A stretch of DNA of 28,112 bases from Candidatus Micrarchaeota archaeon (GCA_040754495.1 JBFMCO010000071.1:1-28112); one strand, 5' to 3'; shown: positions 18,282 through 27,223, counted from the first letter of the stretch. The notes: generated by a model not told the origin, from the sequence alone. A program made the numbers and translations.

Positions 18282-19901
18282 CTAATCCACCTCGAAGCTC
18301 GTCATCATGCCGGAGCCAAGATGCTCCGCGATGTGGCAGTGCATCATCCATTCCCCTTCGTTAGGGAAGTATGTGAGCAGCTCGGCAGTTTTCCCGGACG
18401 GTATGTTCACCGTGTCCTTCCACACCAGATTCCCGTTCTTCTGGCCGTCCATGCTGAGCACGAGGAACTGCGCCCCGTGCAGGTGGAGCGCGTGCTGCAT
18501 CGGATGGGCTGAATTCCCGTCGTTCTCAATCCTTATCTTCACGACCTTGCCTTTCGGTATGGCCGCCGCTGCATCCATGTTTTTCTTGCCGCTCATCCTG
18601 TCCTTTATGACCCAGGTTGTCCTGTTGCTTGTGGAGAAGCTGTTCATGGCGAACATCGTGTCCTCCCACTCAATCCCTTCTTCGATGTGGGCCATCATGT
18701 CCCCCATCCCTCCGCTTTCCATGCCCATTCCCTCAATGTCTACCGTGAGGACATAGTCGAAATCCGCCGGATTGTCGAAATATTCCTCATAAGCGCCGAT
18801 TTCCGAGATTATGTCGCTGTTATTCTTGAGAGCATAGAACCCCCCTTCACCCTCTCCATCCCCGCCCGATTCTTTCACGACTACTCTGCCCAGCGTCTGC
18901 TCGCCGAGCGGGTTCCTGTTTTTGATGGCGTATGTGCTAGGCTTGTCGAATTCAACCTCGACGATGAGCCTTTCCGAAGGCGAAATGATGACGGAATCAG
19001 CTAAATACTCCCTCTCCGCCTTCCCGCCGTCGCCTCCCACCACCTTCATGCGCATCCCATCTATCGAAAGATTGAACGTGCGGACGTTCGCCGCATCCAG
19101 TATGAAAAACCTCACTCTCTCCCCGTTCTCAACTTCGAGGGAGTAATCTGTCCTGCCATTCACGAGCATGACGTTGCCGAACCTTCCCATCAGGGCGAAA
19201 TTGGTTTCGTTGCTGTCGAATGGATAGACGTCCCCGCCGGATAGCAGGATGTCGTCCAGGGCAAGCACCTCCTCCCGGTCGACTGCATTGTAATATCCGC
19301 TTTCGTTTGGCTCCACCAGGATGAATCCGTACAGGCCAAGCTCCTGCTGGAGGTCCTCCCTCACATGCGGATGGTACCAGTACGCGCCTTCATCAGGGAA
19401 CTCCAGCCGGTAAAGGAAGCTTTCTCCGGGCATTACGGCCCGCTGCGTGACATCCGGAACGCCGTCGTACCTGTTCTGCAGCCTGAGCCCGTGCCAATGG
19501 ACGGTCGTGTTTGAGTCCAGCGAGTTGGTGAAATTGACGAAAACCGTGCTTCCCTGCCTCACACGGATGACTGGTCCCGGGATTTGGCCGTTATAAGCGA
19601 ATGCCCGTATCATCTTCCCGTCTATCTCCTTGGCAACCGGCCCGGCTTCGAGCGCGAAGACCGAGCCGTTCTCAAGCTCGTAAACCCCCTGCCCCGCTGC
19701 GGCCTCCAGACCGGTCGTATCCCTGTTTATCGGCTCGAAATCCCGGCCGCCCATCATGCCGCCGGCCATGCCGTTTCCTGCACCCGGCATCCCTCCCCCC
19801 GAGGCCAGCCCTGCGCCTCCCATCATCCCGCTTCTCTGTTGCGCTGAGCATCCGGCGGAAATAATTGTGGCCAGTAAAACAATCGCGAAAACGCCTCTCA
19901 T
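18282..19901 (-). CDS. Secreted three-domain multicopper oxidase (CueO/laccase-like), Met-rich
   Basis: Cu motifs TVHWHG, YWYHPH, HALHLHG, MHCHIAEHLGSGMM; signal peptide ending ISAGC; GGMMGG-rich N-terminus. Confidence 0.95.
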   Translation of the reverse strand: MRGVFAIVLLATIISAGCSAQQRSGMMGGAGLASGGGMPGAGNGMAGGMMGGRDFEPINRDTTGLEAAAGQGVYELENGSVFALEAGPVAKEIDGKMIRAFAYNGQIPGPVIRVRQGSTVFVNFTNSLDSNTTVHWHGLRLQNRYDGVPDVTQRAVMPGESFLYRLEFPDEGAYWYHPHVREDLQQELGLYGFILVEPNESGYYNAVDREEVLALDDILLSGGDVYPFDSNETNFALMGRFGNVMLVNGRTDYSLEVENGERVRFFILDAANVRTFNLSIDGMRMKVVGGDGGKAEREYLADSVIISPSERLIVEVEFDKPSTYAIKNRNPLGEQTLGRVVVKESGGDGEGEGGFYALKNNSDIISEIGAYEEYFDNPADFDYVLTVDIEGMGMESGGMGDMMAHIEEGIEWEDTMFAMNSFSTSNRTTWVIKDRMSGKKNMDAAAAIPKGKVVKIRIENDGNSAHPMQHALHLHGAQFLVLSMDGQKNGNLVWKDTVNIPSGKTAELLTYFPNEGEWMMHCHIAEHLGSGMMTSFEVD

Positions 19902-20358: not shown

Positions 20359-22818
20359 TCACAACCTCGGCTTCCAGCCTCTCATCAGCAGGCTGTTCGA
20401 GACCACGCTCACCGAGCTGAACGCCATCGCAGCTCCTGCTATCACCGGACTTAGCAGGAAACCTGAGACCGGGAACAGGATGCCCATGGCAACCGGTATT
20501 CCTACAGTGTTGTATAGGAAGGCCCAGAAGAGGTTCTCCTTGATTTTCCTCATGGTATACCTGCTGAGCTGTATGGCGGATACGATGTCGCGCAGGTCGC
20601 TTTTCACCAGGACTATGCCCCCGCTCTCGATGGCCACGTCAGTACCGGCGCCAATCGCTATCCCCACATCCGCCTGCGCCAGTGCAGGAGCGTCATTTAT
20701 GCCATCGCCGACGAACGCCACCTTGCTGCCTTCGTCCTGGAGCCTCTTCACCTCGTTGGCCTTGTCCTCCGGCATCACGTGCGCTAGCACCCGGTCGATG
20801 CCAGCCTGCTTCGCTATCGCCTGCGCGGTCCTCTCGTTGTCGCCGGTTATCATGGCAGTCTCATAGCCCATTTTGTGGAGCCTGTCGACGGCTTCTCTCG
20901 AATGCTCTTTTATGGTGTCCGCTATCGCTATGAGCCCGGCTATCCTATCCTCCGCAGCGACTATCACGACCGTCTTGCCCTCTTTCTCGAGCCCGTGCAT
21001 CCTCTTTATAGCCCTGTCATCGACTTTCACGCCTTCCTTCTGCATCAGTGCCACGTTGCCGACAAGCACCCTCACGTTGCCGAAGACGGCGGATATGCCG
21101 TGGCCCGGAATCGCCTTGAAATCCCCGGGCTCCCCTATCCGGAGTTTCCTCTCCTTCGCCTTTTTCACGACCGCCTGGGCAAGATGGTGCTCGGAGTTGT
21201 TCTCCGCAGAGGCGGCTATCCGGAGGAGCTCATCATCCTTCATCCCGAAGGCAATCATCTCGGTGACGATCGCCTCCCCTTTTGTTATGGTGCCAGTTTT
21301 GTCGAACACCACTATCTTCACCTGATGCAGGAGCTCAAGCGCCTCGGCATTCTTTATAAGGATGCCGTTCTCGGCTCCCTTGCCCGTCCCTATCATGACG
21401 GCTGTGGGCGTGGCGAGGCCCATCGCGCACGGGCATGCGATGATAAGGGTCGATACGAGGATGGTAAGGGCAAAGAGGAATATCTGGCCCGCAAGGAAAT
21501 ACCAGTATACGAACGCCGCCAGGGCGAGGATTATTACGCCCTGAACGAAATAGCCGGCCACGGTATCCACAAGGCGCTGAATCGGAGCCTTGCTGCCCTG
21601 CGCGTCCTCGACCAGCTTTATTATCTGGGCGAGCATGGTGTCGCTCCCTACCTTGGTGGCCCTGAACCTGAAAGAGCCCGTCTTGTTTATGGTCGCTCCG
21701 ATGACAATGTCCCCCTTGGTCTTATGCACCGGCAGGCTCTCCCCGGTTATCATGCTCTCATCGACGCTGCTGGCTCCATCAGCGACCACGCCGTCCACAG
21801 GAATCTTGTCCCCGGGCTTGACGATGATTATGTCGCCAACCACGACGTCCTTTATGGGTATCTCCATCTCCTTCCCGTCCCTTATGACCAGGGCGGTCTT
21901 GGGCTGAAGCCCTATCAGCCGTTTTATCGCCTCGGAAGTCTTCCCCTTGGCCACCGCCTCCAGGTACTTGCCGAGGACTATGAACGTCAGGAGGAGGGCC
22001 GCGGTCTCGTAGTATATGCTTCCCTCGATGAACCCGAAACCCACCAGAACGCTGTACGCATAAGCGGTCCCCACGCCAAGAGCCACCAGGCTGTCCATGC
22101 CCGGCATGCGGTTGAGCAGGCCCCTGAATCCGCGGGTGAAGAAATCCCTGTTCAGGTACATCACAGGGGTAGAAAGAAAGAACTGGAGCGCGGCCATGTT
22201 CTTCATGAGGAAATCAGGGTATTCGAGCGCGACGATGCCCTTGAGCATCTCCGGCAGCGCGAGGAGGAGGACCGGGACGGTGAGGAGCGCGGACCAGAGC
22301 ACCCTGCCTTTCAGCTCCTTCACCTCTTTTTCCCGGGCGAGCTTCTCCTTGTCTATCTCCTCGCCGAGCTCCATCAGCTCTGCGTCGTATCCCGCGTCCA
22401 CGATGGCTTTCCTGATGCGGGTGAAACCGGTTTTCCCCTTGTCATATTCTATGACGGCCTTCTCCAGGCCGAAATTCAGCTCGAACTTCTCCACTCCCGG
22501 AGCCTTCCTGAGCGCCTTCTCCACTATCCCGGCGCAGTGCAGGGAGTCCATGCCTATGACATGGAGGTACATCCTGTCCTTCCCTTTCTTCGGAGCCTCC
22601 TCCCCGATGTCCGCCCCGTAGCCAAGGCCTTCTATGGACTCCTTGAAATTACCCGGCCCGACTTTGGCTTCATCGTACTCGACGGTGGCCCTGCTGGTCG
22701 CGTAATTGACGTTCGCGCTCCGGACGCCATCGAGCTTCTTGAGCCTCCTCTCTATGTTGAGGGCGCAGGATGCGCAGTGCATCCCGCTTACCGGGATAGT
22801 CATCTTCATCATCATCAC
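20359..22818 (-). CDS. copA: Cu(I)-translocating P1B-1 ATPase with two N-terminal HMA domains
   Basis: [42 protein letters not shown] and MAFSSVSV (Cu+ ligand signature). Confidence 0.96.
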
Positions 22819-23745
22819 CTACGGATATACCAGGATGCCCTTGGGCCCATAAACCATCATCAGGGAAAGCGCTATGGCGAACGCGGCGCATGTTGCGGCG
22901 AACCCGGCGAAGCGGGTGCTGAATGCCTCCTTCGGGGCCGCCCCGCTCTCCCTGTACATCATGTAGCTGAGCCCGCCGAGGACGAAAGCGCATATCCCGA
23001 ACAGGATATACAGGAACAGCACCAGGTTCTCCCGCAGCATCATCACCGAGGTCATTGCCCCCATGATGCCGGCCATCAGGCCCGCCATCACTCCTTCCAT
23101 AGTGCCCATGACGCCGCAGCACCTGCCGAGGTTGCCGCCAAGGGCGATGCCGGCGGCCATCCCTACCGTGGAGCCTATGAACATGCCGTTCGTAGCGCCT
23201 ATCAGCGCCCCGACCATGAAGCCGCTTATCATGCCCATGGTCATGCCGACCATCATGCCGTTGTTGCAGGATATCCCTTTGCCGTAGCTGCTCATGTGCA
23301 GGTACGAGAATACCGTCATGACGGAGGTCAGGATGGCCAGGGCAAGGAGGGGCATGTACGCCCCGAGCGATGATACCGAAGGGAGCGCCGCGGCGTATCC
23401 AAGGCCGCCCAGTACTACAAGGGCCGCGGTGGAGCCAAGGGCGTAATTCACGAGCTTCGATTCCACCTCGACATGCGGCTCTCCGGCTATGATGGACGAA
23501 AGGTACGTCTTCACCCTTGCCGGGTCCCCCCGCTGGCCGGCATCGCCTGCCTTTTCATTGAATCCTTTCTCGGCAAGCTGCCTCCTCAGCGTCTCGAGGG
23601 TGCCTTCCTCGCAGGAAAGCGCAACAACGCCGCTCTTCGCGTCTATCTCTTTGACTTTGGCGCCGTTCTGCTCGGCCACCCTCTCGATGAGCTTCTCGCA
23701 CGAGCCGCATGTCATGCCGTTCAGCCGGAGCGTGTAATCATTCAC
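22819..23745 (-). CDS. HMA domain fused to a Met/Gly-rich ~7-TM domain
   Basis: GMTCGSC N-terminus; TMs GMMVGMTMGMISGFM and CCGVMGTMEGVMAGLMAGIMGAMTSVMM; stop abuts the copA start. Confidence 0.82.
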   Translation of the reverse strand: MNDYTLRLNGMTCGSCEKLIERVAEQNGAKVKEIDAKSGVVALSCEEGTLETLRRQLAEKGFNEKAGDAGQRGDPARVKTYLSSIIAGEPHVEVESKLVNYALGSTAALVVLGGLGYAAALPSVSSLGAYMPLLALAILTSVMTVFSYLHMSSYGKGISCNNGMMVGMTMGMISGFMVGALIGATNGMFIGSTVGMAAGIALGGNLGRCCGVMGTMEGVMAGLMAGIMGAMTSVMMLRENLVLFLYILFGICAFVLGGLSYMMYRESGAAPKEAFSTRFAGFAATCAAFAIALSLMMVYGPKGILVYP

Positions 23746-23746
23746 C

Positions 23747-23947
23747 TCAAACCACCTTATAGCCCTCTTTCAATATAGTCTTCCTCACTTCATCGAGCAC
23801 GCGCTCGTCCCTCACGCTGACGCGCACCAATCCGCCTTTGTGATCGGCACTGACCTTCTCAACGCCATTTACCTCTGATATCGAATCCGTGAGCAGCATC
23901 TCGCAGGACCTGCAGTGCATGCCTTCAACCTTCATTGTCTTTTCCAT
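23747..23947 (-). CDS. copZ: CopZ-like copper chaperone
   Basis: 66-aa single HMA domain, KVEGMHCRSC...EGYKV. Confidence 0.88.
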   Translation of the reverse strand: MEKTMKVEGMHCRSCEMLLTDSISEVNGVEKVSADHKGGLVRVSVRDERVLDEVRKTILKEGYKVV

Positions 23948-26075: not shown

Positions 26076-26603
26076 CTACTCAATCCGTTCGATATCCAGC
26101 TTTATGGGATTCGTCAGGCAGTAAACGCCCGGGCATCGCTCCTTCGCAAGCCTCATCAGCTCTTCGACGTCTTTTCCGCCGGATACGCTGACCTTCAGTC
26201 TTACGCTTTCCACTATCGGCTCTTCGCCAAGGCCAAGGGCTTTGCGCAGATTTACCCTATTCGCGGCGCTCACCTTCAGCTTCTTCAGCATTATCCCCTT
26301 CTCGGCCGCTACCGCGGCTAAGGTCTGCGCATAACAGGCTGCAAGGCCGAACAGGCAGTACTGGACCGGGTCCGGCTTCGAAGAAGAGCCGCCCATGAAT
26401 CCGGGGCCGTCGGCTTCCACCACCGTACTTGCCTCCCCATGCTTCAGGCTCGCCCTGAACTGGGGTTTGCCGTCATCAAAAACCCACTCGCCTTCCACGC
26501 TCTTTTCTTTTATGGCCTTTTTCGGGTCCGCCTCCGCTTCCGCGATAAACGCTCCGGCTTTTTCCGTGTCGATGTTGTTTATCCTCATTCCACAGCGCCT
26601 CAT
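26076..26603 (-). CDS. OsmC/Ohr-family protein
   Basis: ADGPGFMGG, PDPVQYCLFGLAACY, ERCP. Start at 26603 (ATGA overlap) or 26588. Confidence 0.85.
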   Translation of the reverse strand: MRRCGMRINNIDTEKAGAFIAEAEADPKKAIKEKSVEGEWVFDDGKPQFRASLKHGEASTVVEADGPGFMGGSSSKPDPVQYCLFGLAACYAQTLAAVAAEKGIMLKKLKVSAANRVNLRKALGLGEEPIVESVRLKVSVSGGKDVEELMRLAKERCPGVYCLTNPIKLDIERIE

Positions 26604-27223
26604 TCAAGGGATTTCTTCATCTCCTCGTACTCCTTCTTCGAGATCTCGCCCTTTGCGAATCTCTGCTTGAGTATCTCGGCCGCAGACTGGCCGGCGCTGC
26701 GTCCGGTGACGCTCCGGTAAAGCCAGACAACCACCAGAAGGAGGGCGATTATAAGCAAAACCCAGAACACCAAACCCGCAAGCCATCCATACCCGCCCAT
26801 CATGTCGTAACCATAGCCCATCATCCCGTATCCCATCATATCGCCTCCGGCACCCGGACCCCAGCCACCAGCACCCGGCATCCAGCCCCCTGCATAGAAC
26901 ATGGGCATCATCGCCATCATCCCCCCGTAAGTCACGTTCGTGTCCGTCCGGCCGCAGTGCAGGACCAGCGCCATCTGGATGTGCTGGCGCTTCAGGCTCT
27001 CGCTTCCCTCCCCGCCCATCATCCTGTCCATGGCTTCGTGGGCCTGTCCAGGATGCATCTGCTCCATGTAATACTCGCCTATGAGCTCAAGCTGCGAGTC
27101 GCTGAGGCTGTCGCAGCTTGCGTTGGAATCGACAAGTTGTCTCGCTCTAGAAAAATCCTCAGCGCTCATGGTCGCATATGCGATACCTGCCAGCAATACC
27201 AGGATAAGAAAGGGGGCTCTCAT
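26600..27223 (-). CDS. Secreted Met/His-rich domain, TM helix and SHOCT domain
   Basis: Signal peptide; EQMHPGQAHEAMDRMMGG...QHIQM; GMMGYGMMG linker; TM; EILKQRFAKGEISKKEYEEMK (SHOCT). Confidence 0.85.
   Translation of the reverse strand: MRAPFLILVLLAGIAYATMSAEDFSRARQLVDSNASCDSLSDSQLELIGEYYMEQMHPGQAHEAMDRMMGGEGSESLKRQHIQMALVLHCGRTDTNVTYGGMMAMMPMFYAGGWMPGAGGWGPGAGGDMMGYGMMGYGYDMMGGYGWLAGLVFWVLLIIALLLVVVWLYRSVTGRSAGQSAAEILKQRFAKGEISKKEYEEMKKSLE

Follow-up and report, generated by a model that had tools for sequence, protein, structure and literature searches.

What is a membrane protein with a helix full of methionines doing in an archaeal copper operon, wedged between a copper chaperone and a copper pump? 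The question is raised by a single gene in a 28,112-nucleotide stretch of DNA from a Candidatus Micrarchaeota archaeon (GCA_040754495.1, JBFMCO010000071.1:1-28112), which was analysed over its whole length and is called here the window. The product of this gene, hereafter the Met-ladder protein, joins an N-terminal HMA domain to a Met- and Gly-rich membrane domain (Table 1 gives the positions of all features). A preliminary description had read it as an ATP-independent Cu(I) permease or intramembrane buffer of an undescribed family, encoded between copZ and copA with gaps of 1 and 0 nucleotides (nt). The present analysis partly supports the permease, in that the link to copper and the new family hold and transport itself is proposed, and it gives the buffer no specific support; the protein represents a new family that does work of a familiar kind in a novel arrangement. 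The gene order is as described once it is read on the minus strand, which is the coding one (the plus-strand frame at 22819..23745 is not the protein): the stop codon of copZ ends at 23747 and the Met-ladder start codon lies at 23745, leaving 1 nt, and the Met-ladder stop codon (22819-22821) directly abuts the copA start at 22818, with a gap of 0 nt. The window's own genome carries a single copy of the gene.

Methionine accounts for 8.1% of the whole protein (25 residues) and glycine for 14% (43 residues), against 3.7% Met in the CopA encoded next door, and amino acids (aa) 160-236 alone hold 16 Met and 19 Gly. In the fifth transmembrane helix (TM5), the segment CCGVMGTMEGVMAGLMAGIMGAMTSVMM (aa 209-236) carries Met 213, 216, 220, 224, 228, 231 and 235, that is, exactly at the offsets 0, 3, 7, 11, 15, 18 and 22 noticed previously, with M236 in addition. 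The stripe that they form exceeds helix shuffles when it is evaluated at 100 degrees per residue (p = 0.0075); its best-fitting period, with a resultant of 0.79, is 3.75-3.83 residues and not the nearly exact 3.6 first proposed. The parallel Gly stripe runs further than had been claimed, with 13 Gly in succession, spaced exactly 4 (4.0) residues apart, from G163 to G211 (resultant 0.93), and the second helix with MxxxM motifs corresponds to SCNNGMMVGMTMGMISGFM (aa 159-177). The CC pair at the helix entrance exists too, albeit only partly conserved.

How much of this pattern is retained in the family? Across 243 members aligned to one model, with a mean identity of 33%, M168, M172, M224, M228 and M235 are Met in all 243, followed by M231 (242), M164 (241), M165 (238), M220 (237) and M213 (236), so that ten Met are 97-100% conserved and six of the seven in the TM5 stripe reach at least 97%. 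At the seventh position, 216, Met accounts for 66% and Leu for 28%, and Met 216, 188, 196, 177 and 262, the first four taken as structural, are readily exchanged for Leu, Ile or Phe. Conservation at the Leu, Ile and Val positions of these helices does not exceed approximately 78%. Ten positions are thus kept as Met while Leu, Ile and Val vary, which argues that methionine itself, with its thioether, is needed and not just hydrophobicity; judged by this conservation, the Met pattern is not a product of chance. Other residues are also retained: E217 is Glu in 225 of the 243 (93%), Gln in 12 and His in 5; N186 is kept in 235 (97%); D239 is Asp in 211 (87%) and Glu in 19 (8%). Among the cysteines, C160 is Cys in 216 members and His in 13 of the 27 that lack it, C209 is Cys in 127 and C210 in 170, with at least one Cys at 209/210 in 180 and none in 63. 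When the helices are plotted as wheels, E217 falls on the face occupied by the conserved Met, 105-180 degrees away from the most variable face of each helix (119-179 degrees for the Met of TM3), which, if the variable face is taken as the lipid face, suggests that the Met stripe looks toward the protein or a cavity and away from the lipid. The family core motif reads C-M-x-G-M-M-x-G-M-T-x-G-M in TM3, T-N-G-M-F-x-G in the turn and G-x-M-G-x-M-E-G-x-M-A-G-x-M-x-G-x-M-G-A-M-x-x-x-M in TM5, and these motifs, together with a CupA-type cupredoxin as neighbour, define the family; the window protein matches the family model with an expectation value (E) of 7e-81 and has all the family-invariant residues.

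The 66 residues that precede the membrane domain are a genuine HMA domain, and the fusion already recognised from its metal loop, GMTCGSC (aa 10-16), is real. Such domains are characterised by a ferredoxin-like beta-alpha-beta-beta-alpha-beta fold and a GMxCxxC loop. Scanned by itself, the window protein matches the Pfam model (PF00403) at E 2.5e-4, under the gathering score, and 25 of 31 relatives scanned singly against Pfam match it as well. The family profile retrieves the HMA domains of ATP7B and CopA among the PDB sequences (E 5e-11), and this part of the AlphaFold2 (AF2) model superposes on CsoZ/CopZ with Z 10.8 and a root-mean-square deviation (rmsd) of 1.6 A over 65 residues. By a motif test, about 55 of 75 species members have the domain and about 20 are without it.

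The monomer, whose modelling the preliminary description had suggested, is predicted by AF2 (membrane domain alone, 65 diverse sequences) as seven helices at aa 90-123, 127-157, 160-186, 188-210, 212-235, 241-267 and 279-299, with a predicted local distance difference test (pLDDT) of 94.8 and a predicted template-modelling score (pTM) of 0.91. Four lines agree in supporting a topology with the N-terminus, and hence the HMA domain, inside, seven predicted spans and the C-terminus outside. Lys and Arg are concentrated in the loops placed inside, with 4.76 per sequence versus 1.68 in the loops placed outside. In two relatives (P0196 and P0204) a cupredoxin is fused directly after TM7, and in a third (P0235) a SurA_N-type domain, of a kind that is periplasmic, and then a cupredoxin form the C-terminus. 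A relative of 499 aa, P0228, consists of HMA and TM1-5, one extra TM and then a HisKA_3/HATPase_c histidine kinase; the kinase must be cytoplasmic and, therefore, TM5 ends outside. The fourth line is the hydrophobic N-terminal anchor of the neighbouring cupredoxins, described below. On this topology, the residues that would cluster at the cytoplasmic face are C160, C209/C210, M213, M164/M165, H150, E95 and E266, and those at the outer face N186, M231, M235 and D239-N/H240 (the M235-x-x-N-D-N/H motif), with the N186-G187 pair as the outer turn between TM3 and TM4 and Glu217 about one and a half turns into TM5. The conserved core, TM3-TM5, is directly supported. Within it, TM3 and TM4 (NGMMVGMTMGMISGFMVGALIG and NGMFIGSTVGMAAGIALGGNLG) align to each other with an hhalign probability of 95.6% and E 1e-8 over 22 columns, values that low-complexity composition may inflate, and by this comparison they are a tandem duplication of one 24-residue Gly-zipper helix. 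No other internal repeat was significant with hhalign (TM3 or TM4 versus TM5, TM1-2 versus TM6-7, TM3-4 versus TM5-6).

Does this membrane domain belong to a characterised family? No Pfam or NCBIfam model matched it in the window protein, nor in the 31 relatives taken singly, and a sequence profile search of the PDB returned HMA domains only and no relative of the membrane domain. With Foldseek and an exhaustive VIA-align comparison, run on the full model and on the membrane domain alone, the matches listed were HMA domains or generic helical bundles only: the best VIA-align match of the membrane domain is a designed helical filament (Z 8.6, rmsd 6.0 A), a level expected for any helical bundle, and the best Foldseek match has E 0.2, with a TM-score of at most 0.30. 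The ESM Atlas returned unnamed clusters only. A published description was not found in the literature covered, which is incomplete and so amounts to no proof. The family appears undescribed, as had been supposed. Membership of the obvious copper and mercury families was considered as well. The Ctr profile (PF04145) found no match at E up to 1 in 31 members, and Ctr1 is not among the Foldseek or VIA-align matches listed for the membrane-domain model, although absence from these lists does not exclude a family. CopD/PcoD (PF05425) and MerT/MerC/MerTP gave no Pfam match at E up to 1, and the NCBIfam model MerTP_fusion reached E 0.056 and 13 bits, versus a cut-off of 180, on HMA residues only. The protein is no P1B-type ATPase either, a class with E1-E2 ATPase and HAD domains, DKTGT and a CPC membrane motif, since it matches these through HMA only and, with 308 aa and seven helices, has no cytoplasmic catalytic domain. 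The model Gly-zipper_YMGG (PF13441) matched in 10 of the 31 members with a best E of 0.011 and about 16-17 bits versus a cut-off of 28.9, a sub-threshold likeness that we take as driven by composition.

The family is nonetheless sizeable, with 152 close relatives that share the same N-terminus and 624 cluster representatives at E up to 1e-3, and its members are mostly DPANN archaea. Among species-representative genomes, it is found in Micrarchaeota, Iainarchaeota, Woesearchaeota, Pacearchaeota and Nanoarchaeia, as well as in a few Methanosarcinales and Thaumarchaeota bins and one Patescibacteria genome; some further contigs are probably bacterial, because they carry genes of the sigma-70 family. 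The neighbourhood was counted in 75 species loci, within 3 kb and, for the cupredoxin and CopA, on the same strand, with CopA accepted from 400 aa upwards. There, a Cupredoxin_1 gene accompanies the Met-ladder gene in 71 loci, CopA in 63 (most of the exceptions being truncated contigs), both of them in 62 and a small HMA gene in 66, and CopA is immediately downstream in 47. This synteny persists down to 36% identity, and the family's copper link is very strong. The typical layout in Micrarchaeota comprises a divergent regulator, the cupredoxin, an optional 151-aa membrane protein, CopZ, the Met-ladder gene and CopA, and that of Woesearchaeota and Pacearchaeota an HMA-less form, the cupredoxin and, further on, CopZ and CopA. 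On the probably bacterial contigs only the Met-ladder gene and the cupredoxin are retained and, therefore, this pair can be regarded as the minimal module.

The CupA-type cupredoxin is thus the family's most constant partner. In the window copy, both Cys and the CxMxM align with those of Streptococcus pneumoniae CupA (2MRY/4F2E, E 1.6e-6) and of the cupredoxin domain of its CopA (4F2F, E 2.4e-7), and by these alignments the protein is a true CupA homologue with its Cu(I) ligands intact. The CxMxM is kept in 85 of 89 cupredoxins neighbouring Met-ladder genes, and all 89 have an N-terminal hydrophobic anchor, followed, in the examples inspected, by a linker in which Ser, Thr, Pro, Gln and Asn abound; together with the natural fusions, this suggests that the partner faces outward. 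The upstream cupredoxins of two related loci (L036 and L017) have GGCGCGG in the linker between anchor and domain, a Cys-rich element without equivalent in the window copy. The comparison with S. pneumoniae, whose copY-cupA-copA operon also combines a membrane anchor, the same two Cys and CxMxM with a CopA pump, has its limits, as the pneumococcus lacks a Met-ladder counterpart and its CupA feeds a cupredoxin-type domain of CopA, whereas the window CopA has ordinary HMA domains, plus CopZ. CupA is established as a Cu(I) chaperone that is anchored in the membrane and has two sites, one bis-thiolate and one rich in Met (PMC7558416, PMC5646241). Its anchoring is needed for pneumococcal copper resistance, it can reduce Cu(II) in vitro and its cysteines take part in redox chemistry in vitro (PMC5646241). 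A review from 2020 considered it restricted to a few streptococci (PMC7558416).

The reading that we prefer, with moderate confidence and as one evenly poised between right and wrong, is that the Met-ladder protein is a copper(I)-handling membrane protein that relays Cu(I) from HMA/CopZ inside to the cupredoxin outside. In such a relay, CopZ would load Cu(I) onto the HMA domain, from which it would pass by ligand exchange to the cytoplasmic Cys/Met site and then travel along a thioether ladder made of Met 164, 165, 168 and 172 in TM3 and Met 213, 220, 224, 228, 231 and 235 in TM5, to be taken over outside by the membrane-anchored CupA-type cupredoxin at its binuclear site (Cys2 plus CxMxM). 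The flow would probably be outward, alongside CopA in detoxification, and Glu217 might balance the charge of the bound cation and swap this cation for a proton, possibly resulting in Cu+/H+ antiport. Two things favour outward movement: a single regulator governs the gene together with CopA and CopZ, with which it is co-transcribed, and cation antiport coupled to protons is usually marked by a conserved membrane Glu; still, direction and proton coupling are the least certain steps.

There are precedents for this relay, and by sequence none of them is a relative. Ctr1, like the Met-ladder protein, combines MxxxM on a membrane helix with tight GxxxG-type packing and delivers Cu(I) to cytoplasmic chaperones without ATP. 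The parallel drawn at the outset with its pore stands for the recurring short motifs, but Ctr1 has three helices, with MxxxM in TM2 and GxxxG in TM3, instead of seven and lacks a fused HMA, a membrane Glu and an outside cupredoxin, its likely direction is the opposite and there is no Ctr match in sequence. The likeness is one of chemistry and not of family. CopC/CopD (PcoC/PcoD, fused in YcnJ) and MerP/MerT (fused in MerTP) resemble the present system in pairing an outside metal-binding protein with a small polytopic membrane protein in a resistance operon, and the mer system even has a cytoplasmic HMA-type acceptor, NmerA, comparable to the HMA here. They differ in that they import, in that their ligands are His (CopD) or Cys pairs (MerT) instead of Met, and in the outside partner, which here is a cupredoxin and not CopC or an HMA protein; there is no sequence similarity. 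The closest mechanistic analogy for the proposed antiport comes from CusA, the resistance-nodulation-division Cu(I)/Ag(I) pump in which Cu(I) is transferred stepwise over Met clusters, and from H+-coupled antiporters of the EmrE Glu14 type, in which a membrane acid could alternate between proton and cation. Coupling here is conjecture, and both differ from the Met-ladder protein in size and fold, with no homology and no tripartite partners. In layout, then, the system is most like CopC/CopD or MerP/MerT, in chemistry most like Ctr1 or CusA, and by sequence it is a member of none.

Several points weigh against an outward relay. Export of a cation against the inside-negative potential needs coupling, which is guessed from E217 alone, and that the Met face a continuous cavity is deduced from conservation and helical phase only. 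The precedents for an outside metal-binding protein with a permease, CopC/CopD and MerP/MerT, are importers, and in the pneumococcus the side assigned to CupA is the cytoplasmic one, contrary to the orientation proposed here. The kinase fusion P0228, a possible membrane copper sensor as read from its domains, suggests that the domain can serve as a sensor and not a transporter. In addition, an initial AF2 prediction from 31 sequences showed aa 160-210 as a single uninterrupted helix of 51 residues; that model was rejected for the one from the deeper alignment, with a break at G187, because the loop charges and the three natural fusion types fit only an odd number of spans. Could copper, then, flow inward? 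The outside cupredoxin would capture Cu(I) or reduce Cu(II), as CupA does in vitro (PMC5646241), and the metal would run along the Met ladder, down the membrane potential, to HMA and CopZ. This would follow the logic of CopC/CopD (YcnJ) and MerP/MerT/NmerA, and seems to us quite unlikely, even if the minimal module on the bacterial contigs is a membrane protein with an outside metal-binding protein and without CopA, no energy-coupling domain is recognisable (nor would one be needed), and CopCD and MerTP likewise sit in resistance operons. The CopA exporter lies on the same strand in 63 of the 75 loci, abutting in 47, and the divergent regulator shared with CopA means that the protein would be made exactly in copper excess. 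Furthermore, DPANN genomes have few copper enzymes to supply, and an almost invariant E217 would be superfluous in a passive inward channel, as Ctr1, without any membrane carboxylate, illustrates. An accessory role in which no copper crosses the membrane at all, be it as a CopA adaptor that concentrates Cu(I), as a small intramembrane buffer or as a sensor for the membrane-tethered regulator, is unlikely too. CopA is immediately downstream in those 47 loci, in P0228 HMA and TM1-5 feed into a histidine kinase, the regulator of the operon also has a membrane anchor and CupA requires its anchor for pneumococcal copper resistance (PMC5646241); however, the module is also found where the cupredoxin is present and CopA or the regulator is missing (on the bacterial contigs and in loci of the Woesearchaeota/Pacearchaeota type), ligand-type residues are kept at both faces and throughout TM5, which is more than a one-sided docking site requires, and a stoichiometric buffer would offer little protection.

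Two further explanations dispense with copper transfer along the Met. Cys160 and Cys209/210 could pass electrons from the cytoplasm and keep the thiols of the outside cupredoxin reduced, in the manner of CcdA/DsbD. The Cys flank the cytoplasmic ends of TM3 and TM5, the two Cys of the outside partner would oxidise in air and those of CupA are redox-active in vitro (PMC5646241). Such a thiol relay is nevertheless very improbable: among the notable residues, conservation is lowest at these Cys (no Cys stands at 209/210 in 63 of 243 members, and C160 is absent from 27), on the predicted topology all of them would be cytoplasmic and none near the outer face, the invariant Met cannot carry out thiol-disulfide exchange and no Pfam match to the DsbD/CcdA family appeared at E up to 1. 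That the protein is a generic glycine-zipper protein, its Met purely structural and its copper context brought in by the fused HMA, can hardly be credited. Met and Gly can pack knob-into-hole, and the sub-threshold Gly-zipper_YMGG matches (10 of 31 members, best E 0.011) point the same way, but the roughly 20 of 75 species members without HMA are mostly still beside the cupredoxin and CopA/CopZ, and, with a mean identity of 33%, Met gives way to neither Leu nor Ile at ten positions.

The relay of Cu(I) from the HMA domain to the outside cupredoxin can also be put more boldly, in a form that we regard as rather doubtful: the Met-ladder protein would be the founding member of a family of ATP-independent Cu(I) exporters, a seven-helix Cu+/H+ antiporter with a thioether ladder and one carboxylate that passes copper from a cytoplasmic HMA to an extracellular CupA-type chaperone and serves as the chief protection against copper in DPANN archaea with reduced genomes and in some ultra-small bacteria. 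The known routes for Cu(I) across the prokaryotic cytoplasmic membrane comprise the P1B ATPases, importers of the CopD/YcnJ type and a few importers of the major facilitator superfamily, to which a small and widespread ATP-independent protein with a methionine ladder would contribute a transporter family and a fold that are both new. If true, the hand-off chain in which copper is never free would extend through the membrane, and CupA-type cupredoxin chaperones would be common in DPANN archaea, in contrast to their description from a few streptococci (PMC7558416).

Table 1. Features of the copper operon and its surroundings in the window (positions counted from its first nucleotide)
Feature	Position	Strand	Details
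Met-ladder gene, HMA + seven-helix Met/Gly-rich membrane domain	22819..23745	-	308 aa, GTG start; open reading frame list and translation
HMA (ferredoxin-like metallochaperone) domain, aa 1-66	23548..23745	-	CxxC at aa 13-16 (nt 23698-23709)
Seven-helix membrane domain, aa 90-299	22849..23478	-	AF2 model
TM3, aa 160-186	23188..23268	-	C160 at predicted cytoplasmic end; M164, M165, M168, M172 form MxxxM motifs; Gly every 4 residues
TM4, aa 188-210, Gly-zipper helix	23116..23184	-	ends R208-C209-C210, predicted cytoplasmic side
TM5, aa 212-236, seven-Met stripe	23038..23112	-	Glu217 on same face, Gly on opposite face; then predicted outer MMxND(N/H)
copZ, stand-alone HMA chaperone, 66 aa	23747..23947	-	1 nt upstream of Met-ladder gene; Pfam HMA E 2.4e-13
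copA, P1B-type Cu(I) ATPase, 819 aa	20359..22818	-	two HMA domains, CPC motif; open reading frame and translation
Membrane-anchored CupA-type cupredoxin, 147 aa	24400..24843	-	Cys...CGMRM site; Pfam Cupredoxin_1 E 4e-10
Membrane protein with ACPVC, 151 aa	23948..24403	-	optional operon member, between cupredoxin and copZ
Divergent regulator (probable), winged helix DUF7343, two membrane helices	24983..25465	+	Pfam DUF7343 E 4e-9
Multicopper oxidase	18282-19901	-	after copA
His-rich protein, 149 aa	19906-20355	-	between copA and multicopper oxidase
SHOCT-domain membrane protein	26600-27223	-	

The 151-aa membrane protein with the ACPVC motif had no match in Pfam and NCBIfam scans, and about 20 of 82 related loci have a homologue in the corresponding place. 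The winged-helix DUF7343 protein is the probable copper regulator of the operon, because it keeps its divergent position in most Micrarchaeota loci. Beyond copA, the window encodes a multicopper oxidase with an N-terminal Met/Gly-rich tail (MMGGAGLASGGGMPGAGNGMAGGMMGG) and, before it, a His-rich protein (HWH...HLPVHTHEEGDGTVH) with no Pfam match and with homologues in a few related loci (L014, L024, L061 and L074). On the other side of the regulator, a membrane protein with a SHOCT domain contains a long stretch rich in Met, Gly and Tyr (MMGYGMMGYGYDMMGGYGW). It may be a further copper-binding protein, and several related loci (L001, L016, L060, L069 and L078) have homologues at a distance of a few kb from the operon.

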